This document shows positions 105 through 47,860 of a stretch of DNA of 60,000 nt, piece after piece. The stretch comes from Squalus acanthias. Its lineage: Eukaryota. The DNA is taken from NCBI GenBank assembly GCA_030390025.1, contig CM059431.1, positions 141,920,001-141,980,000 of the forward strand. Direction: 5' to 3'. Position numbers and translations under genes: made by a program. The notes below the pieces were generated by a model, which saw only the letters and a list, made by a program, of their open reading frames with translations, was not told where the DNA came from and made no database searches. Every line of letters begins with the position of its first letter. Position 1 is the stretch's first letter.

Positions 105-2093
105 AGGGTCTCCGCCATTAATGTTAGAGTAGGGCCAGCATCAGTTATGTTACTGTACGTTCAGCTTTCGTAATGTTAGAGTAGGGCCAGCATCAGTAAT
201 GTTATTGTACATTCAGCTTTCGCAATGTTAGAGGAAGGTCAGCAACAATAATGTTAGAGAAGAGTCACCAGCAGTAATGTTAGAGTAACGTGAGCCACCA
301 GTGATGTTAGAGTAGTGTCCCCAACAGTAAATTGATCATAGGCACAACATCAGTAATGTTAGAGTAGGGTCACCATCAGTAATGCTAGACTAGTGTCATC
401 ACCAGTAATGTTTGAACATGGTCACCAACATTTATGTTAGAGTAGTTTCAATACCAGTAACGATAGAGTAGGGTCACCACTAGTTATGATAGAACGGGGT
501 AAACACCAGTAATATTAGATTAGATTCACCAACAATAATGTTAGTGTAGAGTCACCACCAATAATGTGAGAGTCGGGCCACCACCAGTGAAGTTAGATCA
601 GAGTCACCACCAGTAATGATAGAGAAACCTCGCCACCAGTAATGTTGGAGTACGATCACCGCCAGTAAGGTTAGAGTAGGGTCACCACCAGTAATATTAG
701 AGTAGTGTCACCAACAGTAATGTTAGAGTAGTTTCAACACCAGTAACGATAGAGTAGGGTCACCATCAGTTATGCTAGAGCAGGGTAAACAACAGTAAGG
801 TTAGAGTAGAGTCACCACCAATAATGTTCGAATAGTGACATCTTCACTAATGTTAGAGTAGAGTTACCAGCAGTAATGTTAGAGTAAAGTAAGCCACCAG
901 TAATGTTAGAGTGGGGCAACACTAGTAATGTTAAAGAAGGATCACTACCATATATGTTACAGTAGGATCACCATCAGTAACGTTATCATAGAGTCACCAC
1001 CAGTAATGTTAAAGTAGGGTCACCACTAGGAACGGTAGAGTAGGGTCACAGTCAGTTGTGTTAGAGTAGGGTCAGTAAGAGTAATGTTAAACCAGCGTCA
1101 CCACCAGTATTGTTAGATAGTTTCGCCACTAGGAACGTTAAAGTAGAGTCATTACCAGTAATGTTAGAGTGGGATCACCGCCAATAATATTAAAGTGGTG
1201 TCAACAACAGTAATGTTAGAGTATGGTCACCACCAGTAAGGATAGAGTAGTTTCACCACTGTTAGAGTAGTTTCACCACTGTTAATGTTAGATTAGAGTC
1301 ACCACCAGTAATGCTAGAGTAGGATCACCACCAATAATATTAGAGTAGGATCACCAAAAGTATTTTAGAGCAGGGTCACCACCAGTAATGTTAGAGCAGA
1401 GTCATCACCAGTATATTAGAGTAGGGTCACCACCAGTAATGTTAGAGTAGGGTCACCACGGGTAATGATAGAGTAGGTTCACCAAAAGTAATGTTGGAGT
1501 AGTGCGACCACCATTAATGTTAGAGTAGGAACACCATCAGTAATGTAAGAGTTGGGTCAACACCAATAATATTAGAGTGGGGTTAACACCATTAATGTTG
1601 GATAGTTTCACCACCAATAATGTTGAAGTAGGGTCACCAACAGCAATGACAGAGTAGGGTCACAATAAGTTATGTTAGAGTAGGTCACCAACAGTAATGT
1701 TAAATCACGGTCACCACCCGTAATGTTGGAGAAGGGTCACCGTGAGTAGTTTTAAATTAGTTTCAACATAAGAAACGGTAGAGCGAGGGCGCCAACAGTA
1801 ATGTTATAGTAGGATCAACACCCTTAACGTTAGTGTTGGTACACCACCATTAATTTTAGAGTAGGATCACCACTAATAATGTAGACGTAGTATCACTGCA
1901 ATTAATGTTAGCGTAGGGTCACCACCACTAATATTAGAGTAGGTTCACCAATAATAATATTATAGTTGGGTCACCACCAGTAATGTTGGAGTAGATTCAT
2001 CACCAGTAATGTTAGTGTAGGGTCATCGCCATTAATGTCAGAGTAGAGTCACCGCCAGTAATGATAGAGTAGGGTCACCAGCAGTAAATTAAT
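105..2093. repeat. 26-bp tandem satellite, consensus CAGTAATGTTAGAGTAGGGTCACCAC (segment 1)
   Basis: Directly visible degenerate tandem units. Confidence 0.97.
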
Positions 2094-2192
2094 ACAAAAA
2101 GAAAATACTGCAGATGCTGGAAATCTGAAATAAAAACAGAAAAAGCTGGAGATACTCAGCAGGCAAGGCAGCATCTGCAAAGAGAGAAACAG

Positions 2193-2229
2193 AGTTAACG
2201 TTTCAGGTCGATGACCTTTCGTCAGAACT
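2193..2229 (-). ncRNA. Minimal type I hammerhead ribozyme motif in the Penelope pLTR
   Basis: Minus strand AGTT-CTGACGA-A-AGGTC-ATC-GACCT-GAAA-CG-TT-AACT: intact core, 5-bp stem II, 4-bp stem I, palindromic AACGTT at stem III. Confidence 0.8.
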
Positions 2230-2540
2230 GGAAAAAAGCAGGAAACGGAACAGATTTTTAAGCAAGTGTAGAGGCTGGGAAAGGCGGGAGGGGCTGAAAG
2301 AACAAAAGGAAAGATCTGTGATAGGATAGAAGGCGGTAGAGGTTAAGAGACATTAAGAGATATTCAAGGCAAAAGGATATGGTAATGGGAGAGGTTAAGA
2401 AACAAAGGATGGTTCTAGATGAAGTGTAAATTGCGCTGGCAGAATGAAAGACAGCTGCATTGTGGGGAAGAAAAAAAAAGACAGACAAAGTGTGTGGATA
2501 AAATATATATATATATATATATATATGATAGGAGCCGAGG

Positions 2541-2861
2541 TTATGATCTGAAATTGTTGAACTCCATGTTGAGTCCAGAGGGCTGTAAAGTGCCTAATCG
2601 ATAGATGAGGTGCTGTTCCTCGAGCTTACGCTGAGCTTCCGTGAAACAATGCAAGAGGCCGAGGATGGTGAGGGAGTGGAGCGGTGAATTAAAGTGACCG
2701 GAGACCGGAAGCTCGGGGTCCCCCTTACGGACTGAATGGAGGTGTTCCGCAAAGCGGTCACCCAATCTGCATTTGCTCTCCCCAATGTACAGGAGACCAC
2801 ATCGTGAGCAGCGAATACAGTATCCTAAATTGAAAGAAGTAAAAGTAAATCGCTGTTTCAC
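2541..2861 (-). pseudogene. Penelope GIY-YIG endonuclease domain fragment
   Basis: YCIRC..C..LYIGES motif, RFAEH, HFN, terminal GLN; frameshifted relative to upstream ORF pieces. Confidence 0.85.
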
Positions 2862-3218
2862 CTGGAAGGGATGTTTGGAGCCCTGGACAGTGGGAAGGGG
2901 GGAGGTATAAGGTCATGTGTTGCATCTCCTGCGCTTGCACGGGAAGGTGCCGGGCGAAAGGGAAGGGGTGTTGGGGTGATAGAGTAGTGGACTAGGAATG
3001 CTGAAACGTGAGGTGAGGGGAAGATGCGTTTGGTGGTGGGATCACGCTGGAGGTGTCGGAAATGGAGGAGGATGATCCGTTGAATGTGGAGGCTGGTGGG
3101 ATGAAAGGTGAGGACAAGGGAAACTCTGTCGTGGTTCCAGGAGGGAGGGGTAGGAGTGAGGGCAGAAGTGCGGGAGAAAGAATGGACACGGTCAAGGGCC
3201 ATGTGAACCCCACTGTAG

Positions 3219-3320
3219 AGGGTCACAATAAGTTATGTTAGAGTATGGTCACCAACAGTAATGTTAATTCACGATCACCACCAGTAATGTTGGAGAATGG
3301 CCACCATCAGTAGTGTTAAA
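3219..3320. repeat. Four satellite units trapped between the two Penelope arms
   Basis: Matches the variant units at 1656-1757 and ~9149-9250. Confidence 0.9.
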
Positions 3321-3377
3321 TGCATCTTCCCCTCAGCTCCCCTTTCAGCATTCCGTAGGGACCGCTCCCTGTGCAAC
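3318..3377 (+). mobile_element. Penelope-like element, plus-strand arm, left piece (split by CR1)
   Basis: AAATGCATCTTCCCCTCAGCTCCCCTTTCAGCATTCC is the reverse complement of ~2995-3031. Confidence 0.8.
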
Positions 3378-7950: not shown

Positions 7951-8434
7951 GACACCCTAGTCTACTCCTCTAGTCAATTTACAGCCCTCTGGACTCAACA
8001 TAGAGTTCAACAATTGCAGATCATATCCTCAGCCCCTATCATTTATATATATATTTTTTATCCAGACGCTTTGTCTGTCTTTTTTTCTTCTCCCCCACAT
8101 GGCAGCTGTCTTTTAATCTGCCAGCGCAATTTACACTTCACCTAGAATCATCCTTTGTTTCTCAACACTGTCCCATTACCATCTCCTTTTGCCTTGAAAA
8201 TCCCTTAATATCTCTTAACCTCTTCCGCCTTCTATCCTATCACAGATCTTCCCTTTTGTTCTTTCATCCCCTCCCCCACTTTTCCAGCCTCTACACTTGC
8301 TTAAAAATCTGTTCCATTTTCTGCTTTTTTCCAGTTCTGACGAAATGTCATCGACCTGATACGTGGACTCTGTTTATCTCTTCACAGATGCTGCCTGACC
8401 TGCTGAGTTCCTACAGCTTTTTCTGTTTTTATAC
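7951..8434 (+). mobile_element. Penelope-like element, plus-strand arm, right piece (3' pLTR)
   Basis: 7978-8432 is a diverged reverse complement of ~2130-2589; the hammerhead at 8333-8369 has a mutated core (GATA, TG). Confidence 0.9.
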
Positions 8435-9788: not shown

Positions 9789-12700
9789 ACATAGATACAT
9801 AGATACATAGAAGATAGGAGCAGGAGTAGGCCATCCGGCCCTTCGAGCCTGCTCCGCCATTTAATGAGATCATGGCTGATCCTCCGATTCAGTATCCCGT
9901 CCCCGCCTTCTCTCCGTAACCATTAACCCCTTTTGCCTGTAGAAATATATCTAATTCCCTCTTAAATATATTTAATGAGCTGGCGTACACTGCCCTCTGT
10001 GGCAATGAGTTCCACAGGTTCACCACCCTCTGAGTGAAGAAATTCCCCCTCATTTCTGTCCTAAATGGTTTAGCCCTTATCCTTAAATTATGTCCTCTAG
10101 TTCTGTTCTCACCCGCCAAGGGAAACATTCCTTCTGTATCTAGTCTGTCTAGACCTGTCAGAATTTTATACACTTCTATGAGGTCCGCTCTCAATCTTCT
10201 AAACTCCAGTGTGTACATCCCTAAACTACATAGTCTCTCCTCATCGGTCAATCCCGCCATTCCTGGTATCAGCCTGGTGAATCGCCGCTGCACCCCCTCC
10301 ATGGCAAGAACATCTTTCCTCAGATGAGGCGACCAAAACTGTACACAGTACTCGAGGTGTGGTCTCACCAGTGCCCTGTACAGCTGCAGCAAGGTATCCC
10401 TGTTCCTGTATTCCAACCCTTTTGCTATGAAGGCCAGCATACTGTTTGCCTTCTTGACCGCCTGTTGCACCTGCATGCTCGCCTTCAGTGACTGGTGTAC
10501 AAGAACACCCAGGTCTCTCTGTACTTCCCCCTCTCCCAATTTATTGCCATTTAAATAATAATTTGCCCTCCCGTTCCTGCACCCAAGGTGGATAACTTCG
10601 CACTTGTCCACATTATAGTGCATCTGCCATTTATCCGCCCAATCACCCAGTCTGTCCAAATCGCTCTGGAGCTTCCTGGTCTCCTCCTCTGAGCCCACCC
10701 CCCCTCCTAGTTTAGTGTCGTCTGCAAATTTGGAAATGTTGCATCCGACTCCCTGATCCAGGTCATTAATGTAAATTGTGAACAGCTGGGGACCCAGGAC
10801 AGATCCCTGCGGTACCGCACTTGTTACTGCCTGCCATTCAGAAAATGAGCCGTTTATTCCAACTCTCTGTTTTCTATCTGACAGCCAGTTCTCTATCCAC
10901 GTCAATAGTTTCCCCTTTATCCCATGAGCTTCAATTTTCCATGCTAATCTTTTATGTGGCACCTTGTCGAAGGCCTTTTGGAAGTCCAGGTACACCACAT
11001 CTACTGGCTCTCCCCCATCTATTTTACCAGTTACTCCCTCAAAAAATTCCAATAGATTAGTCAAGCACGATTTACCCTTTGTAAATCCATGTTGACTCTG
11101 TCCTATCCTGTCCCCATTTGCTAAGTGCTCCGCTATTTCATCCTTAATGATGGACTCCAGCATTTTGCCCACAACTGATGTAAGGCTTACAGGTCTGTAA
11201 TTACCTGCTTTTTCCCTACCCCCCTTTTTGAATAGTGGGGTAACGTTAGCTACCCTCCAATCCATGGGCACTGTTCCCGAGTCTAATGAATTCTGAAAAA
11301 TCATACTTAGTGCATCCGCTATCTCTAGGGCCACCTCCTTCAGTACCCTAGGATGCATGTTATCAGGCCCTGGGGATTTGTCCGCCTTCAATCCCTTTAG
11401 CTTCCTTAACAACATATCCTTAGAGATATTGAGTTGCGTCAGTTCCTCCTTTGCCAATGTCCCTATTTTTCCCGATATCCCAGGGAGGTTTTTTGTGTTT
11501 TCCTTCGTAAAGACTGACCCAAAGTATGCATTTAGTTGGTCTGCCATTTCCTTATTTCCCGTTATATATTCCCCCGTATCTGACTGCAATGGACCAACTT
11601 TGGTTTTCACCAGTCTTTTCCTCTTGATATACTTATAAAAGCTTTTGGAGTTAGTTTTTATATTTTCCGCCAGCTTGCTTTCGTAAGCTATTTTGCCCCT
11701 CTTGATTAAGCCCTTTGTCCTCCTTTGCTCTATCTTAAACTGTTCCCAATCTTCCGCTCTGGCGCTTTTTTCGGTTATTTTATACGCCCTATCTTTGGAT
11801 TTTATGCTGTCTCTAATTTCCCCTGTTATCCACGGTTGAGTCACCTTTTTAGATTTCCTTTTATGCCAGATTGGTATAAACAATTTTTGCAATTTTGTCA
11901 TTCTATCTTTAAATGCTTGCCATTGTTTATCTACCTCCAGTCCTCCCAGGAACGTTGTCCAATCAGACCTACTCAGTTCCCGTCTAATGGCATCATAATT
12001 CCCCTTGTTTAAATTCAGGACCTTAGTCTCTGAGTCAATTTCTTCGCTCTCCATTTCGAGTGAGAAATCGATCATGTTATGATCGCTCTGACCCAAGGGT
12101 CCCCGTACAACAAGATTACTAATTAGTCCCTTCTCATTGCACAGTACCCAGTCCAATATAGCCTGTTCGCGAGTTGTTACCTCGACATATTGATCCAGAT
12201 AACCATCCCTTAAACACTCAAGGAATTCCTCCTCCTCATTATTTTTACTGATTAGGCTAGTCCAATCTATATGTAAGTTAAAGTCACCTATGATGACAGC
12301 TGTGCTCTTATTGCACGCTTCTCTAATTTCCCTCGTGATGCCCTCCCCAACCTCTATTTTACTATTTGGAGGCCTATATACCACTCCTTTTAATGTTTTT
12401 CGCCCCTCGCTATTTCTTAGCTCCACCCATATAGATTCTGTATTAACTGAGTTAATATCCTTCCTTTCAATTGCATTTATCCCCTCTTTTACCAGCAATG
12501 CTACCCCTCCTCCCTTTCTTTTTTGTCGATCCTTCCTAAATGCTGAATACCCCTGTATGTTAAGCTCCCAGCCCTGCTCACCCTGCAACCATGTTTCCGT
12601 AATCCCAATTAGATCATAATTATTAACCTCTATTTCCACAGCTAATTCATCTACCTTGTTCCTGATGCTTCTCGCATTAAGGTATAAAATCCTCAGGCTT

Positions 12701-13059
12701 TTTTTATGCTCACATTTTTTATGAATTAGTTTGGCCCTTTGTTTTTTGTTCCTCACCCTTTTACCATTTATTTCTGTCTGCCTTTCACTTTCCTCTTTTT
12801 CACTACATAGGTTTCTAGCCCCCTGCCATACTAGTTTAAATGCTCCCGAACTGCTTTATCAAAAATTACCCCGAGAACATCAGTTCCATCTTTGCACAGG
12901 TGTAGACCGTCCCTTTTGTATAGGTCACACCTACCACAAAACTGCTTCCAATGCCTCAAAAATTTAAAACCCTCCCTCTTACACCACTGCTCAAGCCACG
13001 TATTTAGCCTAACTATCCTGTTCTCTGTACTCTTACTAGCACGTGGCACTGGCAGTAAT
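9789..13059 (-). mobile_element. Young CR1 LINE, 5'-truncated inside ORF1, with intact ORF2
   Basis: (ATAGATAC)n octamer tail at 9789-9810; ORF1 C-terminus at 12831-13049 (..DGLHL.. esterase end); CAGTAAT at both junctions. Confidence 0.97.
9889..12756 (-). CDS. CR1 ORF2: apurinic-like endonuclease + reverse transcriptase, 955 aa, uninterrupted
   Basis: YLNARS, ITETW, YRPP, GDFN, SDHN (APE); NYRPVSLTS, QHGF, YLDFQKAFDKV, PQGSVLGP, FADD (RT). Confidence 0.95.
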   Translation of the reverse strand: MRNKKQRAKLIHKKCEHKKSLRILYLNARSIRNKVDELAVEIEVNNYDLIGITETWLQGEQGWELNIQGYSAFRKDRQKRKGGGVALLVKEGINAIERKDINSVNTESIWVELRNSEGRKTLKGVVYRPPNSKIEVGEGITREIREACNKSTAVIIGDFNLHIDWTSLISKNNEEEEFLECLRDGYLDQYVEVTTREQAILDWVLCNEKGLISNLVVRGPLGQSDHNMIDFSLEMESEEIDSETKVLNLNKGNYDAIRRELSRSDWTTFLGGLEVDKQWQAFKDRMTKLQKLFIPIWHKRKSKKVTQPWITGEIRDSIKSKDRAYKITEKSARAEDWEQFKIEQRRTKGLIKRGKIAYESKLAENIKTNSKSFYKYIKRKRLVKTKVGPLQSDTGEYITGNKEMADQLNAYFGSVFTKENTKNLPGISGKIGTLAKEELTQLNISKDMLLRKLKGLKADKSPGPDNMHPRVLKEVALEIADALSMIFQNSLDSGTVPMDWRVANVTPLFKKGGREKAGNYRPVSLTSVVGKMLESIIKDEIAEHLANGDRIGQSQHGFTKGKSCLTNLLEFFEGVTGKIDGGEPVDVVYLDFQKAFDKVPHKRLAWKIEAHGIKGKLLTWIENWLSDRKQRVGINGSFSEWQAVTSAVPQGSVLGPQLFTIYINDLDQGVGCNISKFADDTKLGGGVGSEEETRKLQSDLDRLGDWADKWQMHYNVDKCEVIHLGCRNGRANYYLNGNKLGEGEVQRDLGVLVHQSLKASMQVQQAVKKANSMLAFIAKGLEYRNRDTLLQLYRALVRPHLEYCVQFWSPHLRKDVLAMEGVQRRFTRLIPGMAGLTDEERLCSLGMYTLEFRRLRADLIEVYKILTGLDRLDTEGMFPLAGENRTRGHNLRIRAKPFRTEMRGNFFTQRVVNLWNSLPQRAVYASSLNIFKRELDIFLQAKGVNGYGEKAGTGY

Positions 13060-19658: not shown

Positions 19659-20396
19659 GTAAGTCAATGTATCCTGTTGCCTAATACCTGTTGACAATCT
19701 CAGTGTTAATGCAACATATTCCGAGAATGTCCTCAATGCAGATTCATTCATCCACCGGGATCAGTCGCTGAATATCAGCGGGAATCCTACCAGACCGCGC
19801 GGCCGCTGTTCTGGTGGGCAGATCCTTTGTACCGGGCGCTCAGCCTTCCTCCCTATACTGAGGGAGGGCGAGGCTAATTCCCCGGGCTCTCCAACCGTGC
19901 CTAGATCACTAAAGAACGTGTTGCTCAGTGTCTATAATGTTCACCACATTTGTGCCGTTGTTCTCTGTCGATATTAATTTGATAATTCATCGGACTGCAG
20001 CCACCTCCACCCAACAGGGGACTTTGAAAGATATTTTGAGAAATAATTTGCACTCAAGAAGAAGCTCCATAATTTGGACATAGATTGAACCTATTTGTCT
20101 CAGCTGAATGTTTAATTTGAATTATATCTTTCCATAAATTGCCGTGAAATTATTTTTAATATTTAACAAAGACTGAGTGAAGTATGCTTGAAGGATGATG
20201 GATTTTCAGTCTCTCTATATTGAATGTCCAATGAATAATTTATGTTAAACAACGTACGTTAACCCTCGCCTATGTTCATGATAACAATCCGTCTGCATAA
20301 ACCTAAGTAGGGACACATCTGAACATTTCCCCACATTATGCTGTGAGATTTAACTGAGTGACCCCGTTACTGACCTCTTGTCCCTCTTTCTCACAG

Positions 20397-21295
20397 CGAA
20401 CCTACTGACAATCGTGATTCTCTCCAGAGGAAATTGCGGCCTTTCCAAATGTATCTCTGTCTACATGGTGGCCATGGCAACAGCAGATCTACTGGTCATG
20501 ATCATCAATATATTAGTGAACCGCATTTTACGTTATCACTTTCCACATTCATTCCTGTCGTTAACTGCCGTTTGTAAGATCATTATGTTTGTGCAATGTG
20601 TCACCCTGTATTTGTCGGTGTGGTTTACAGTCTCATTCACATTTGACCGATTTGTAGCTATATGTTGTGAGAAGTTTAAAACCAAGTATTGCACAGTGAG
20701 AACTGCGGCCGCGGTTATAACAACGGTCTCTGTCCTGATCTGTTTACAGAGCCTCCCTTTTTGGTTTGCATATGAACCTGAGCGAATAATTCACAATGTT
20801 CACTGGGGTTGTCGGTCCAGAGCGGAGTTTTTCTCATCGGCTGCAGGTGTTGCGTACTACTGGTTAGAAAGTATTTTCATTGCTTGGCTTGCATTTGCTT
20901 TGATATTAATGTTAAATTGTTTGACAGTCAGACGTATTTTAGTGGCCAGTAGAGCCCGCAAGGGACTCCGGGGTCACAGCAGTGAGAATCAGATCGATCC
21001 AGAGATGGAGAACCGAAGGAAATCCATCATTTTACTTTTCAGTGTATCGGGCAGTTTTATACTGTTGTGGCTGACATCTGTTGTTAGTTATTTAACTACC
21101 AGACTGACAAGCACCGCGTTTTACCGAGGCGATAATGCAGCTCCCGCATACATCGCCACAGTAACCGGGTATATGCTCATGTATTTGAGTTCCTGTTCAA
21201 ACACGTGTATTTATGCAGCTACTCAAAGTAAATTCAGGGCAGAGCTGAAGAAGCTGATTAAATCTCCATGGAAGTTTATTGTTCTTCGAAAATGA
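20397..21295 (+). CDS. GPR139-like rhodopsin-class GPCR, coding exon 2 (spliced protein 322 aa)
   Basis: Branch-like TACTGAC, pyrimidine tract and CACAG acceptor at 20396; hydrophobic TM segments, MATADL (TM2), FDRFVAIC (TM3), ECL2 Cys, RRKSIILL (TM6 start), NTCIY (TM7); no internal stops. Confidence 0.93.
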
Positions 21296-22215: not shown

Positions 22216-23944
22216 ACCTGGGTACCACACGCCAAAATATATCAATCTGCTGTCAAAGCACAATCTAGTGAAAGTCAGGTAAGTTTAGTTAAGATGGATA
22301 ATTGATAACTTTTTCTTGGAAATGGCTGTGTCCTTTTTTATTCTGAACGATGAGAAGTTTGTATTTGATAGCTTGGTCACTATCCAAAAACATCAGGACC
22401 ATGCAGGGGGAGATTCTAATCAAACACCTCCATGCCCCTGGTCGTTCTATATGATAACCAAAAAGGAGAGGGATGGCTTGTATTGGATGGCTCGCGCGGC
22501 ATAATCTTTGGAATCGCTGTGTGTGCGGAAGTGACATATCGTACATAAAGCAACCAGCATGTGAAATACTTGATGAAGAATAGGTTCGAAGACATGGTCA
22601 GTCACACTGATAACACCACTGCATGAACTGTTTAATCTGGCTCTGGAGAGTGAGAACATATGTAAAATCAAGGTGCAGAGACCTGTGCCATAGAATAGGT
22701 CGAGATAGATATATGCTGCTGATGAAAAAAAGTTTAGTATTGACCATAAATATTCTAACGCCAACAAAGGATGCAATGTAAGGAAATGGTTAATCAAACC
22801 ACCCGGAATTCTTCTGAAGCTATACTGTTTTGGGTTGTCTTTCCATTGTAGCAATGTTAACCTTGAGCCTTTTCCTGTTATACAGGGAAGTATAAATCTA
22901 CTTAAAGTACCACAGGCTGTTGGGCCAGCGCTGACGCTGCAGCAACGGTCAGTTTCAGGATGAAGTCATAAGCGATTTAATTAAACTCATGACATTGCAA
23001 AAAGATTCATCAATTTCAGGGAACTTTAATCATTTAGTAACAGTGTGGGAAGACAGTACTGCAATGCAAAAGATCCGGGCATCCATCATAATTTTGAATT
23101 AGTACAACAGATACAGAAACAAAGACGGACTTATTACTAAATGATTCATTTGGTACAATTGCAATTATATGAATCAAGAGTGAAACTATCGATCATATAT
23201 CTCAATTAAATTATCTCTATTTGGATTTTCATTTGAAATGTCATATACTCTTCTAATGCAGGGTTGTGTGGATTGTCAAGTACAGGGAATGAGAAAAATG
23301 CATGAAAACTGGCAGTTTTAATGAATATTGTTTTGATAAAGGCCTAAGCAACTCAGAACTGTGACAAGTTTGGGTCTCCAACCAATCAATATCAGGTGTG
23401 GGTGTAATTTCTACCTTTTAAATGTATACTTCAATAACATTGCGTGTATTATGTGCTTAATAAATCTATGGCACTTCACTCCAATGTTCCAGAGCCTTAC
23501 TGAAAATCTTACGCTAATAAAAGCCTTTGTACTTTAATTGTGAATGGGCTCCATTTACTTACTGTGATTAACTCTTCAACGTTTCTCTTGACCCTGACGT
23601 CATCCAAAAGCCAAAATACAATTGATTACAGGTCCCCGGGCTCTGCCAATCCGGATGGCATCCAACTTCTGGGGAAATTGCTCATTAGATGCGGACAGTT
23701 CTGTGCAAGAATCACATTCTCATTTATCTCGATTCAGACGACCCACAATATTTCAGGCAGGAGTCAGGCAGCAGGCGGAGGTGTAAATTCCAACAGTCAG
23801 CGATGTTCTGAACCCAGCTACAATCCTGAGAACGCGACCTGCAATCAACCACATCATCCGAACTCAACAGGCAATATAGAAAGCAAAGGCATGAATAATT
23901 AACAATTACATTACCGTGTCACATTCAATCTGATGTGGTTGTGT

Positions 23945-24865
23945 TTCCCCGTCCCCTGTTTCTATTTAAAATGTTTTGGTATTCCCTTTGAGTTTCTCTA
24001 TTTCTAATTAAGCAGTTATTGTGTTTCCTTAACATTGCTTGCCCTCTATTTGTTATTAAACATGATGCGGAGATGCCGGTGTTGGACTGGGGTGGACAAA
24101 AATGAGAAGTCGCACAACACCAGGTTATAGTCCAACAGTTTTATTTGAAATCACAAGCTTTCGGAGCTGCTGCTCCTTCGTCGGGTGAAGTAAAGAAATA
24201 CTTTCTTTACTTCACCCGACGAAGGAGCAGCAGCTCCGAAAGCTTGTGATTTCAAATAAAACTGTTGGACTATAACCTGCTGTTGTGCGACTTCTCATTT
24301 TTGTTATTAAACAGTAACTGTGTTCCCCTGTCAAGTAATTCTATATACATGGATACTATGTTCTTGCGCCCAAATTTCTAATTAAACAGTTACTGTGTTT
24401 CCCTGACATTCCCGTCTCCTCTATTTCTAAATAAAGAGTTACTGTCTCCCCAGTCCCCTATTTCTAAATAAACAGTTACTGTGTTTCCCCATGTCTCATT
24501 TAATTCTATTTCTTATTAGATAGTTTTCTTGATTCCCCTGAATGTCCTTGTCCTCTATTTCTAATTGAACCGTTGCTGTCTTCCCCTGTCCCCTACTTCT
24601 AAATGAAGTGTTATTGTGTTCCGCTGGTCGCTATTTCTAATATCAGTTGCCATATTCCACTGTCCTCTATTTCTAATTAAACCATCACTGTGTTCGTCTA
24701 TATTCCCTTTAGACTATTTCAAATTAACAGTTAATTTATTGCACTTCATTTTCCTGTTCTCCATTTCTAATTAAACATTTACAGTGTTCCCCTGAATACT
24801 CCTTTATTCTAATTCTACTTTTGCTGCCCGTGTTCCCCTGAACTCCCCTGTTCTCTAGATTTAAT
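23945..24865. repeat. Degenerate ~35-45-bp minisatellite (TATTTCTAATTAAACAGTTACTGTGTTCCCCTGTCCC)
   Basis: Recurring TATTTCTAATTAAACAG core. Confidence 0.85.
24063..24299. mobile_element. Palindromic mini Penelope-type insertion with hammerhead motifs on both strands
   Basis: 103-bp arms 24096-24198 and 24202-24304, 3-nt loop, one mismatch; 14-bp TSD TTTGTTATTAAACA at 24049-24062 and 24300-24313. Confidence 0.9.
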
Positions 24866-25584
24866 ATGAAGATTAGGAAGGAAGCCTGTTCCATAGATAG
24901 ACAGTCGCTCACTGAAATAATGTTTCCAGAGATTAGTTTTGAATTTACTTCTTCAATCTCAGGCCGTGTCCTCTGGTTCCCCTGTTGTGGACAAGGTGAA
25001 ACAGCTCATCATGGTCCACCTTATCTTAGTGGATTAAGAACAGTGTCTCGCATACATTCAGGTCCCGGATATTCCTGTAACCTTTGTATGTTTGTCATAG
25101 GATCGTTAACATGAAAAGTATAATTAAACTGCTGGTGTTGGGGTCAACTACAATTCAACAGTTTCAGAGTTTTACATTATATTTTAATTCAGAATCTAAC
25201 AGCCTATGTCTTCTGCCTCTATATCATCCAAAGCAGACTTGTCCTGTTACTAAAATTTCACGATGAAATCTCACTTACAAACATTCTACTTCACTACAAA
25301 GTCGCTAAAAAATAAACGCTGTGAGTGTCCCGCATGATCTCATTGGATTTACTGAGGTCCGAACCGCCAGTAAAGTTCGCACCTACCTGGTGCCTCCGTA
25401 CCTTCGATGACTCGCGCTCCTGGGTCTGCAGGCCTACACCTGAGTAAAGGCCCACATATCCCAGGAGCACATGCGGTTCATAACCGTCCCTGGGATCATG
25501 TGTGCCGGCCCAATCAATCACAAAGGGAGGTCGCTATTTCTAATATCAGTTGCCATATTCCACTGTCCTCAGAAAAAATCATTC

Positions 25585-29829: not shown

Positions 29830-29843
29830 CGTCCCTGGGTGGA

Positions 29844-29874
<31 letters not shown>

Positions 29875-29904
29875 AAACGCGCTAACCGATTGCGCCACAG
29901 AGAC
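29830..29904 (-). tRNA. tRNA-Asn (GTT), variant or young pseudogene
   Basis: GTCTCTGTGGCGCAATCGGTTAGCGCGTTTGGCTGTTAACCGAAAGGTTGGTGGTTCAAGCTCCACCCAGGGACG, nearly the vertebrate Asn-GTT sequence; 8-nt T-loop; T4 and T7 terminator runs downstream. Confidence 0.92.
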
Positions 29905-31844: not shown

Positions 31845-33058
31845 AAAATTCATAGATTCTGGAACGGTTCCCGTGGATTTGAATGTAGCAAATGTAAACC
31901 CACTATTGAAGAAAGGAGGGAGAGAGAAAACGGGGAACTACAGACCAGTTAGCTGACATCAGTAGCAGGGAAAATGCAAGAATCTATTATTAAGGAAGTG
32001 GTAACAGGGCTCTTAGAAAATAATAATAGGATTGGGCAGAGTCAACCCGGATTTATGAAAGGGAAATCGTGTTTGACAAATCAGTTAGAAATTTCTCATT
32101 TTGTAACTAGCAGAATACATAAGGGGGAACCAGGGAATGTGGTGTATTTGGATCTTCAGAAGGAATTCGATAAGGTGCTACACAATGGGTTATTAAACAA
32201 AATTAGTGCTCATGGGATTTGGGGTAATGTACAAGTATGAATTAAGGATTGGTTAACGGACAGAAAACAGAGAGTAGGAATAACCGGTTCTTTTTCGGTT
32301 TGGCAGGCTGTATCTAGTGGGGTACCGCAAGGATCAGTGCTTGGGCCTCAGCTATTCAGAAACTACATCAATGATTTGGATGAGTGGACCAAAAGTAATA
32401 TATCCAAGTTTGCTGATGATGCAAAGTTGGGTGGGAATGCAAGTTGTGAGGAGTATACAAGGAGGCTTCAAGGGGATATAGACAGGGTGAGTGGGCAAGA
32501 ACTTGGCAAATGTCATAAAATGTGGAGAAATGTGAAGTTATCCACTTTGGTAGGAAATCTAGAAAAATAGATTATTTTTAAATGGTGAGAGATTGGGAAA
32601 TGTTGTTGTTCAGAGAGAGCTGGGTCTCCTTGTACACGAATCACTGAAAGTTAGCATGCAGGTGCAGCAAGCAATTAGGAAAGCAAATGGCATGTTGGAC
32701 TTTAATACAAGAGGATTTGAGTTTAAGATGAAAGACATCTTACTGCAATTATATAGGGCCCTGGTGAGACCACACCTGAAGTATTGTGTACAGTTTTGGT
32801 CTCATTACCTAAGGAGGGATATACTTGCTATCGAGGGAGTGCAACGAAGATTCAGCAGACTGGTTCCTGGTATTGGAGATTGTCCTATGGAGAGAGATTA
32901 AATAGACGAGGCCTATAAGCTCTAGTAATGAGAAGAATGAGAGGTGATCTCATTGAAACATACAACGTTCGTACTTGGCTTGACAGGGTAGATGCGGGAA
33001 GGATGTTTGCCCTTATTGGGGAGTCCAGAATCAGACATCACAGTCTCAGAATAAGGGG

Positions 33059-33271
33059 AAGTCGCAAAACACCAGGTTATAGTCCAACAGATTTATTTAA
33101 TTTTACAAGCTTTCGGAACAGTTCGCTCCTTCGTCAGGTCTGCTAACTTACCTGACGAAGGAGCGAACTGTTCCGAAAGCTTGTAAAATTAAATACATCT
33201 GTTGGACTGTAACCTGGTGTTGTGCGACTTCTCATTTTTGTCCACCCCAGTCCAACGCCGGCATCTCCACA
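33059..33271. mobile_element. Palindromic mini Penelope-type insertion with hammerhead motifs
   Basis: 82-bp arms 33058-33139 and 33150-33231; 13-bp TSD TCAGAATAAGGGG at 33046-33058 and 33272-33284; empty site in the paralog at 55162-55174. Confidence 0.92.
33148..33186 (+). ncRNA. Minimal type I hammerhead ribozyme motif, intact core
   Basis: TTAC-CTGACGA-A-GGAGC-GAACT-GTTCC-GAAA-GC-TT-GTAA. Confidence 0.8.
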
Positions 33272-33924
33272 TCAGAATAAGGGGTCAGCAATTTAGGACT
33301 GAGATGAGGAGACATTTTTCACTCAGTGGCCGCTGAATCTTTGGAATTCTGTAACACAGAGAGGGCTATGGACTCTGAATCGTTGAGTATATTCAAAACA
33401 GAGATTGATTGAATTTTGAATATGAATGGAATTAATGGATATGGGAATATTGCAGGAAGGTGGAGATGACGTAGAAGATCAGACATGATCTTATTGAATG
33501 GCGGAGTAGGCTCGAAGGGCCGAGTAGCTTTCTTTTACTCCTATTTCTTATATTGTTATGTTCTTAAGATCGGGGTGAAATCATAGAATGATACAGCACA
33601 GAAGGAGAGGATTCGGCCCATTGTGTCCGTGTCGGCTCTTTGAAAGAACAAACCCATCAGTCTCACTCACTGCTCTTTTCGCTAGCCCAACATTACTTTA
33701 TCCTTTTAAAGTATTTATCCAAATTCCTTTTGAAAGTTCCCATTGAATCTGCTTCTACGGCCCTTTCAGGCAGTGCATTTCAGCACATAAGAACTCATTG
33801 TGTAAAAATTCAGTCTCCTGATCACCCCCTCTGTTTGTTTTAACAATTGCCTTAAATCTGTGCCTTTGGTTTCTCGACGCACCTGCCAATAGAAACGCTT
33901 TCTCCTTCTTTATTCTAGGGATCA

Positions 33925-38529: not shown

Positions 38530-39275
38530 TGTGTGTGTGTGAGTGTGTGAGTGAGTGAGTGAGTGAGAGACAGAGAGACAGCGAAAGAGAATGCGTATGT
38601 ATCAGTGAGTGACTCTGTGTATGTGTGTGTGCTTGTGTGTGTGAGAGAGAGAGAGATAACGCGTGTGTATTTGTGAGTTACTCTGAGTGTGTGTGAGAGA
38701 GAGAGAGAGATAACGCGTGTGTATTTGTGAGTTACTCTGAGTGTGTGTGAGAGTTAGGCACACACACACACAGACAGAGACAAAGGATGCATATGTACCT
38801 CACTGAGTAACTTGAGTGAGTGTGTGTGTGTAAGAGAGAGAGAAAATTACACAAAGAGACAGAATGCGTGTATATATCAGTAAGTGAATGATTGTATGTG
38901 TGAGAGACAGAGATATTGGAAGCGAGTGACTGTCAGTCATTGTGTCTGTGCGAGAGACGTAGAGAAAGTCAATGGGACAAAAATTCATCCCGCTGCGCGA
39001 GAGTACGCACTGCCTTACCCCCGCGGGAACAGATCGAGATCAATTTCTGGGCCAATGTGTGTGTATATCAGAGTGACTGTTATGTATATCTGTGTATGTG
39101 ATGCGGAGATGCCGGCGTTGGACTGGGGTGGACAAAAATGAGAAGTCGCACTACACTATAACCTGGTGTTGTGCGACTTCTTATATCTGTGCAAGTAAGA
39201 GAGACAGAGAGACTGACAGAGAGAGAAAGAGAAAGGAAGCTTCTGTATATCAGTGAGTGATTCTGAGTGAGCATG
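38530..39275. repeat. Compound (GT)n/(GA)n low-complexity tract
   Basis: Dinucleotide runs with a ~55-bp internal duplication. Confidence 0.85.
39100..39181. mobile_element. Internally deleted copy of the palindromic mini element
   Basis: Same GATGCGGAGATGCCGGCGTTGGACTGGGGTGGAC tail and inverted GAAGTCGCAC/GTGCGACTTC ends; imperfect 15-bp TSD at 39085-39099 and 39182-39196. Confidence 0.85.
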
Positions 39276-47570: not shown

Positions 47571-47721
47571 GGAACCCCCAGATGTTGACGAGGAGGCCTT
47601 TGGAGCTTCAGCACGACTGAGATTGTCGGACACTCAGTCCTGAAGAGGTGCCTGGGTCTTTGGCGATGGGCCCGTCCATTTTGACATTTCTTATTGAATT
47701 CAATATGACAACTAGTCATAA

Positions 47722-47860
47722 TACAAAAGCAAAATACTACGGATGCTGGAAATCTGAAATAAAAACAGAAAATGCTGGAAATACTCAGCAGGCCAGGCAG
47801 CACATGTGGAGAGAGAAACAGAGTTAATGGTTCAGATCGATGACTTTCCGTCAGAACTGG
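47722..47860 (-). mobile_element. Short Penelope pLTR end
   Basis: Matches 2093-2231; hammerhead motif degraded. Confidence 0.88.

Follow-up and report, generated by a model that had tools for sequence, protein, structure and literature searches.

The window analysed here, the whole 60-kb stretch of Squalus acanthias DNA, is rich in repeats, including minisatellites and LINEs with reverse transcriptase (RT) and AP endonuclease. One LINE ORF2-like frame at 9889-12855 on the minus strand runs uninterrupted for 988 codons and contains AP endonuclease and RT domains. A single-exon rhodopsin-family GPCR open reading frame (ORF) at 20354-21295 on the plus strand (7tm_1, E 7e-22) and a tRNA with a GUU anticodon at 29830-29904 on the minus strand (Rfam, 60.6 bits) were also recognized, the former 2.8 kb from the insertion studied here. 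This insertion, copy A, occupies a degenerate host minisatellite (23930-24866) with units of about 37-49 bp. Its left flank (23650-24048) is multi-copy among contigs from public runs, and many of the differences are common to most of these contigs, so that the locus may belong to a segment that was duplicated and has since diverged.

The copy A insert is 237 bp long and is bounded by an exact 14-bp direct repeat, the target-site duplication (24049-24062 and 24300-24313), of which 12 of 14 positions are A or T. Two inverted arms of 103 nt (24096-24198 and 24202-24304) are identical at 102 of 103 positions, the one mismatch pairing 24120 with 24280, and they meet head to head at a symmetric centre with a loop of 3 nt (24199-24201). 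The sense of the element is the minus strand. Outside the arm, and on one side only, lies a 33-nt 3' tail (24063-24095, minus strand; A or C at 25 of 33 positions), the terminal segment of a family whose ends cluster at 24061-24062. The tail-bearing arm extends from 24096 to 24198 on the minus strand, and comparison of the arms places the tail-less, inverted arm at 24202-24299 on the plus strand. At its outer end the right arm runs 5 nt (24300-24304) into the target duplication, which indicates microhomology between the target and the element, the first 5 nt of the right-hand duplication being the element's own continuation. Excision of the insert in silico regenerates one minisatellite unit that aligns with 7 of 7 neighbouring units tested; as the empty site is an intact unit, we conclude that the insertion and its duplication are real. 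The 5-nt match to the element is present in the target unit and absent from all seven neighbouring units aligned. The fold of copy A has a z-score of -30.7, and an equal or better fold was obtained in 0 of 200 shuffles. A first-pass annotation of this DNA had described the insert length, the 14-bp duplication, the 103-bp arms with one mismatch, the 3-nt loop and a tail of ~33 nt, and the sequence confirmed every one of these values.

Sister copies and abundance of the family

Two further copies were found in the window. Copy B (33046-33284, plus strand) lies within a LINE and has a 13-bp duplication, arms of about 81 nt plus partial microhomology, a 10-nt centre, the tail and an intact hammerhead core; its empty site comprises 48 nt identical to a paralogous LINE. 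Copy C (about 39085-39196, minus strand) consists of the tail and a short asymmetric inversion, with a duplication of 10 bp if exact or 15 bp with 2 mismatches, and it lacks the hammerhead because it is truncated below the motif. The tail is the same in copies A, B and C, and an inverted 5'-truncated copy adjoins the 5' end in 3 of 3. The arms measure about 98, 81 and <30 nt, respectively, and the centres differ: that of A is symmetric, the tail arm of B is 10 nt longer, and the tail-less arm of C is 11 nt longer with a 2-nt overlap at the join. The points at which the tail-less arms stop (unit positions 100, 94 and 96 in A, B and C) differ by no more than 6 nt. In two of the three copies the fold-back point is 10-12 nt upstream of the hammerhead motif, the copy A arm extending 12 nt upstream. 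The duplications of these three copies are 14, 13 and 10-15 bp long, with A/T at 12/14, 7/13 and 11/15 positions. Variants are common to both arms in copy A (102/103 identical) as well as in copy B, in agreement with the earlier proposal that the arms were copied from one template.

Contigs from four public runs were aligned to a query consisting of one arm, the tail and the left flank, which yielded 16,734, 11,397, 2,761 and 1,878 contig pieces. The flank had about one thousandth of the summed depth seen over the element, a ratio that is not a copy number. Among the 24 of 459 loose-end rows listed, the outer ends fall into two clusters, one at the tail end (24061-24062) and one at the tail-less end (24093-24103), and the flanks at these clustered ends are unrelated, with agreement of 0.36-0.46. 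The family is a high-copy repeat, and clustered ends with unrelated flanks indicate many independent insertions with two kinds of end. Among the pieces from the four runs, none spanned the copy A locus. Family contigs occur in X12, the one putative RNA run, and are uninformative on transcription of the copy A locus. In one contig of run X1 the tail (24094 to 24063) is repeated after 15 other letters, which may represent a tail-only insertion into an existing copy.

Hammerhead motif and its predicted folding

A descriptor search placed a minimal type I hammerhead motif with a U4-to-C change at 24151-24188 on the minus strand, in the tail-bearing arm, and at 24212-24249 on the plus strand, in the inverted arm, with predicted cleavage after 24245. 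An AATAAA hexamer is read from the sequence of each arm, at 24140-24145 (minus) and 24255-24260 (plus). The motif, TCAC-CCGACGA-A-GGAGC-AGCA-GCTCC-GAAA-GC-TT-GTGA, occurs once per strand in copy A. It has GAAA, NUH, helices I and II, an extra base after A9, G10.1-C11.1 and a palindromic 15.2-16.2. The core reads CCGACGA on both arms and does not match the consensus CUGANGA; the core of copy B (33148-33186) is intact, CUGACGA. Motif, hexamer and core change on each strand are thus as the first-pass annotation had reported them. The hammerhead search that it recommended gave a divided outcome. With a descriptor relaxed to accept U or C at position 4, we identified 4 motifs in the window, and none of 20 shuffles contained any, whereas none of the Rfam hammerhead families matched copy A at the gathering score or at E<=10. 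The term ribozyme is accordingly used on the strength of the descriptor and of the published traits of minimal hammerhead ribozymes (min-HHRs; Cervera and De la Pena 2014, PMC4209133).

These traits bear out the assignment to the minimal type I class. In PMC4209133, the min-HHRs of Penelope-like elements (PLEs) share with copy A a 4-bp helix I, the extra base after A9, G10.1-C11.1, GAAA, a palindromic 15.2-16.2 and a helix III that is not stable; copy A differs in its U4-to-C change and in a helix II of 5-6 bp. The same paper describes min-HHRs in metazoan PLE repeats as mostly solo motifs from truncated PLEs (2014), and dual min-HHRs on opposite strands, about 100-700 bp apart, in some PLEs. 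Unlike those dual motifs, the two in copy A mirror each other exactly, and their starts are separated by only about 23 nt.

A conserved core and stem covariation, whose absence from other copies the earlier annotation had named as counting against its reading, are seen in copy B. In addition to the intact core of copy B, stem I is UUAC/GUAA in copy B and UCAC/GUGA in copy A, a compensatory change between the two motifs compared. Among the loose-end rows listed, CUGANGA was read in 4 of the 6 that cross the core and C4 in 0 of 6, these rows being biased toward variants unlike the reference. Judged from these sequences, the U4-to-C change is probably a variant of copy A or of its source.

Structure prediction gave very different results for one arm and for the palindrome. 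In a single arm the hammerhead is the minimum-energy structure, with predicted pairing probabilities of 0.99 for stem II and about 0.8 for stem I. In the full insert the predicted pairing probability of both hammerhead stems is 0.000, and adopting the hammerhead fold within the copy A hairpin carries a predicted penalty of 68.6 kcal/mol on either strand. The AATAAA lies inside the same duplex as the motif. Whichever strand is transcribed, the antisense arm comes first and the transcript contains a single sense motif, which precludes a dimer in cis. Cleavage as a dimer was reportedly described by Lunse et al. in 2017. According to PMC4209133, a min-HHR monomer is inactive and dimer activity is low, and PMC3088659 states that U4C considerably reduces activity in vitro and is tolerated in a viroid. 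The copy A hammerhead is likely a mutated passenger that, according to structure prediction, would not form within the hairpin, and the motif is probably inert. The claim of a working ribozyme on whichever strand is transcribed was therefore not sustained, given the 0.000 stem pairing predicted in the palindrome, the single motif per strand and the mutated core. The wider claim that either strand supplies a ribozyme and a poly(A) signal holds as text and is unlikely to hold as function, both being predicted to lie within the duplex. Rfam miRNA matches fell under their gathering scores and reflect hairpin shape only; a miRNA identity was rejected.

Relationship to Penelope-like elements

PLE insertions are strongly 5'-truncated, often with an adjacent inverted truncated copy at the 5' end, and carry a tail of 30-40 bp that is often at one end only, as described in PMC8557442 (Craig et al. 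2021) and PMC8969392. Head-to-head junction palindromes with a duplication were reported in PLEs in 2013 and interpreted as self-priming (Arkhipova et al. 2013, PMC3846280). PMC8557442 calls the origin of the tandem and inverted structures and of the tail undefined, and PMC11167929 leaves it unvalidated. Copy A resembles the complex insertions of EN+ PLEs in PMC3846280 and PMC8557442 in its 5' truncation, inverted truncated copy, palindromic junction, 30-40 bp tail at one end and flanking duplication, and its anatomy thus upholds the Penelope link proposed earlier. It differs from the EN+ insertions described there in that its family keeps only the terminal 100-140 nt, the insert is itself the palindrome, and no ORF is present. 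Duplications are 13-15 bp in the copy A family versus 8-10 bp in the Adineta PLE examples given in these two sources.

A second point of comparison is Poseidon PAc of Anolis carolinensis (Frangieh et al. 2024, PMC11167929). In that paper, purified Anolis PLE acts on both strands, cutting and extending each, and it starts at two internal sites that bracket the tail. As in the copy A family, two genomic end classes bracket an AC-rich tail and the hammerhead lies upstream; for PAc, insertion in vitro is independent of hammerhead cleavage, the motif being dispensable. The PAc motif overlaps the ORF start, whereas the copy A family is known from ORF-less copies. Initiation by PAc in vitro is not homology-based, the start site not being homologous to the cut DNA; this differs from the partial homology at the tail-less ends of copies A to C. 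Non-autonomous PLE derivatives are described in PMC8557442 and bioRxiv 10.64898/2026.07.22.740005. Animal non-LTR retrozymes, as presented in the latter, are like copy A in being short, non-coding and PLE-related and in having a type I hammerhead; they are head-to-tail tandems with a motif per unit, whereas copy A is head-to-head with one motif per strand, and we rejected a retrozyme reading of it on this ground.

Copies A, B and C contain no ORF. No RT/GIY-YIG ORF linked to the copy A family was found in the window or in viral, metagenome and prokaryote collections, and exact-pattern scans gave 0 matches in viral contigs and 0 in prokaryote genomes. As for 78 metagenome loci considered as relatives, they were dismissed as chance 17-mers (1 of 78 extended, to 24 nt). 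A second PLE-type family is represented at 2085-3230 (minus strand), with further 3' pieces at 8007-8432 (plus) and 47719-47860 (minus). It includes a GIY-YIG-like C-terminal remnant (2541-2912; Pfam E 0.009, below the cut-off) that is 55-69% identical to most of the relatives listed, the named best being from skates, rays and whale shark; relatives of the remnant carry RT and GIY-YIG. Downstream of the remnant, at 2225, is the min-HHR of this family, with an intact core. The remnant and this min-HHR together indicate that hammerhead-bearing PLE-type elements exist in this genome, though of another family: no 3' similarity was found between the two. On the 5' side of the second PLE fragment, a 37-nt inverted repeat (2995-3031 and 3318-3354; 89%) flanks a minisatellite piece and is possibly an inverted or rearranged 5' end.

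Because no ORF-bearing parent was found for the copy A family, its PLE origin is argued from anatomy. On this basis we consider it highly probable that copy A derives from a PLE, with the proteins supplied by an ORF-bearing parent. Our principal reading, to which we assign a probability of about three in four, is that copy A is a dead, heavily 5'-truncated PLE insertion in which the terminal 100-140 bases of the element were deposited twice in head-to-head orientation, with the hammerhead as a passenger. Weighing against it are the failure to link an RT/GIY-YIG ORF to the family, the lack of an Rfam hammerhead match and the A/T content of the copy B duplication, only 7/13. It is a fresh instance of an already described form of PLE insertion, an extreme stump.

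Origin of the palindrome

To account for the palindrome we propose a pathway with two primers. A GIY-YIG endonuclease would make a staggered cut, the nicks lying about 14 bp apart. One target strand would prime reverse transcription at the tail end, and the second would prime on the same RNA at a point about 35-40 nt more internal, aided by short homology. Both cDNAs would halt just past the hammerhead, and joining of their 3' ends would give a palindrome that is tailed at one end. A host read-through transcript would then form a long hairpin hiding the ribozyme motif and AATAAA. That a staggered cut was followed by priming of both target strands on one RNA has, in our estimate, an even chance of being correct.

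The junctions supply the evidence for this pathway. Compared with the continuation of the element, the target at the tail-less junctions of A, B and C is identical at 5/10, 6/10 and 6/10 positions, respectively, a total of 17/30 versus 7.8-8.8 expected (P 0.0004-0.001; three copies, in a 10-base window chosen by the analyst). Two of the three opposite-strand contig joints listed connect a tail-only arm (24097 to 24179; 24099 to 24191) to sequence upstream of the hammerhead, the direction of each joint being inferred from side lengths in contigs that under-report symmetric hairpins. Variable centres, closely spaced tail-less ends, junction homology and tail-only joints together favour priming of both target strands on one RNA, and the differences in arm length and centre fit formation of the palindrome at each insertion. 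Against this pathway, the symmetric centre and 3-nt loop of copy A fit a simple fold-back equally well, the PAc start site in vitro is not homologous to the cut DNA, and the basis is three copies and three contig joints.

The same PLE stump could also arise if a single tail-primed cDNA folded back and copied itself, before microhomology, or an endonuclease cut at the boundary of the tail, allowed it to be joined with the other end of the target. The perfect symmetry and minimal 3-nt loop of copy A are what such self-copying would leave, as are the variants common to both arms in copies A and B, and the longer tail arm of copy B fits a loop; junction palindromes were also taken as self-priming in PMC3846280. 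The difficulty comes with copy C, whose tail-less arm has 11 nt absent from the tail-bearing arm, and with the tail-only arm in two of the three contig joints listed. Fold-back explains copies A and B equally well, and copy C only if its centre was deleted afterwards, an event known from long palindromes. We regard self-copying as a serious, if rather doubtful, possibility. The first-pass annotation favoured a non-coding, Penelope-mobilised fold-back element that supplies double-stranded RNA, a ribozyme motif and a poly(A) signal on either strand. On this view copy A would be a distinct, non-autonomous palindromic element, transcribed and retrotransposed as a unit and kept for these products. 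Copy A is indeed non-coding and flanked by a duplication, the turn lies 10-12 nt upstream of the motif in two of the three copies, and non-autonomous PLE derivatives exist. However, no two of copies A, B and C have a centre or ends in common, arm lengths differ, copy C has no hammerhead motif, and an inverted copy plus tail is a published form (PMC8557442 and PMC3846280). A function maintained through the ribozyme also sits poorly with one motif per strand, a predicted fold penalty of 66-69 kcal/mol and a U4C change that considerably reduces activity in vitro, yet is tolerated by a viroid (PMC3088659). We consider such an element improbable.

A MITE or foldback DNA transposon, with terminal inverted repeats that resemble a hammerhead by chance, would likewise be short, non-coding and of high copy number with long inverted repeats. 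It is contradicted by duplications that are long and variable (14, 13 and 10-15 bp) instead of short and fixed, and by a tail outside the repeat on one side only. Further arguments against it are the unequal arms (about 98, 81 and <30 nt), the covariation in the stem and the failure of 20 shuffles to yield any motif, and this alternative was rejected as very improbable.

We return to the pathway with two primers. In the twin priming reportedly described for LINE-1 by Ostertag and Kazazian (2001), the second target strand is said to prime internally by short homology, leading to 5' inversion. Internal second-strand priming by short homology is the likeness to our proposal. L1 inversions are not known to duplicate the inverted segment, whereas the arms of the copy A family mostly cover the same sequence, so that twin priming here would need strand displacement or a second pass. 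Among openly accessible papers, judged by title and abstract, we found none on twin priming in the PLE mechanism, and a search of open literature also gave no paper on such palindromes in sharks. We suggest, tentatively and with somewhat less than even confidence, that the stumps are footprints of an undescribed PLE integration step, namely twin priming of one RNA by both cut target strands at the start sites on either side of the tail, with microhomology guiding the inner one.

As an object copy A matters little, since PLE ends left behind in this published arrangement are very numerous. Stumps whose empty site is clean are useful in that both priming points and the centre can be read from them. 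If twin priming is true, the head-to-head palindromes and their tail at one end would be accounted for with no need of the antisense template put forward in 2013, counting junctions among the many young shark copies would offer a test of the step, and every such insertion would leave a preformed hairpin directed against the 3' end of the element itself. Three palindromes in 60 kb could be a source of hairpin RNA where they lie within transcripts, and from the folding model a read-through hairpin from copy A is plausible.

In copy A (24063-24137, minus strand) and in copy B (33200-33257, plus strand), structure prediction pairs the tail with the segment that follows AATAAA, forming a stem of 9-10 bp. 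The predicted energy of this region is ~-18 kcal/mol, and it is a candidate protein-binding or RT start structure.
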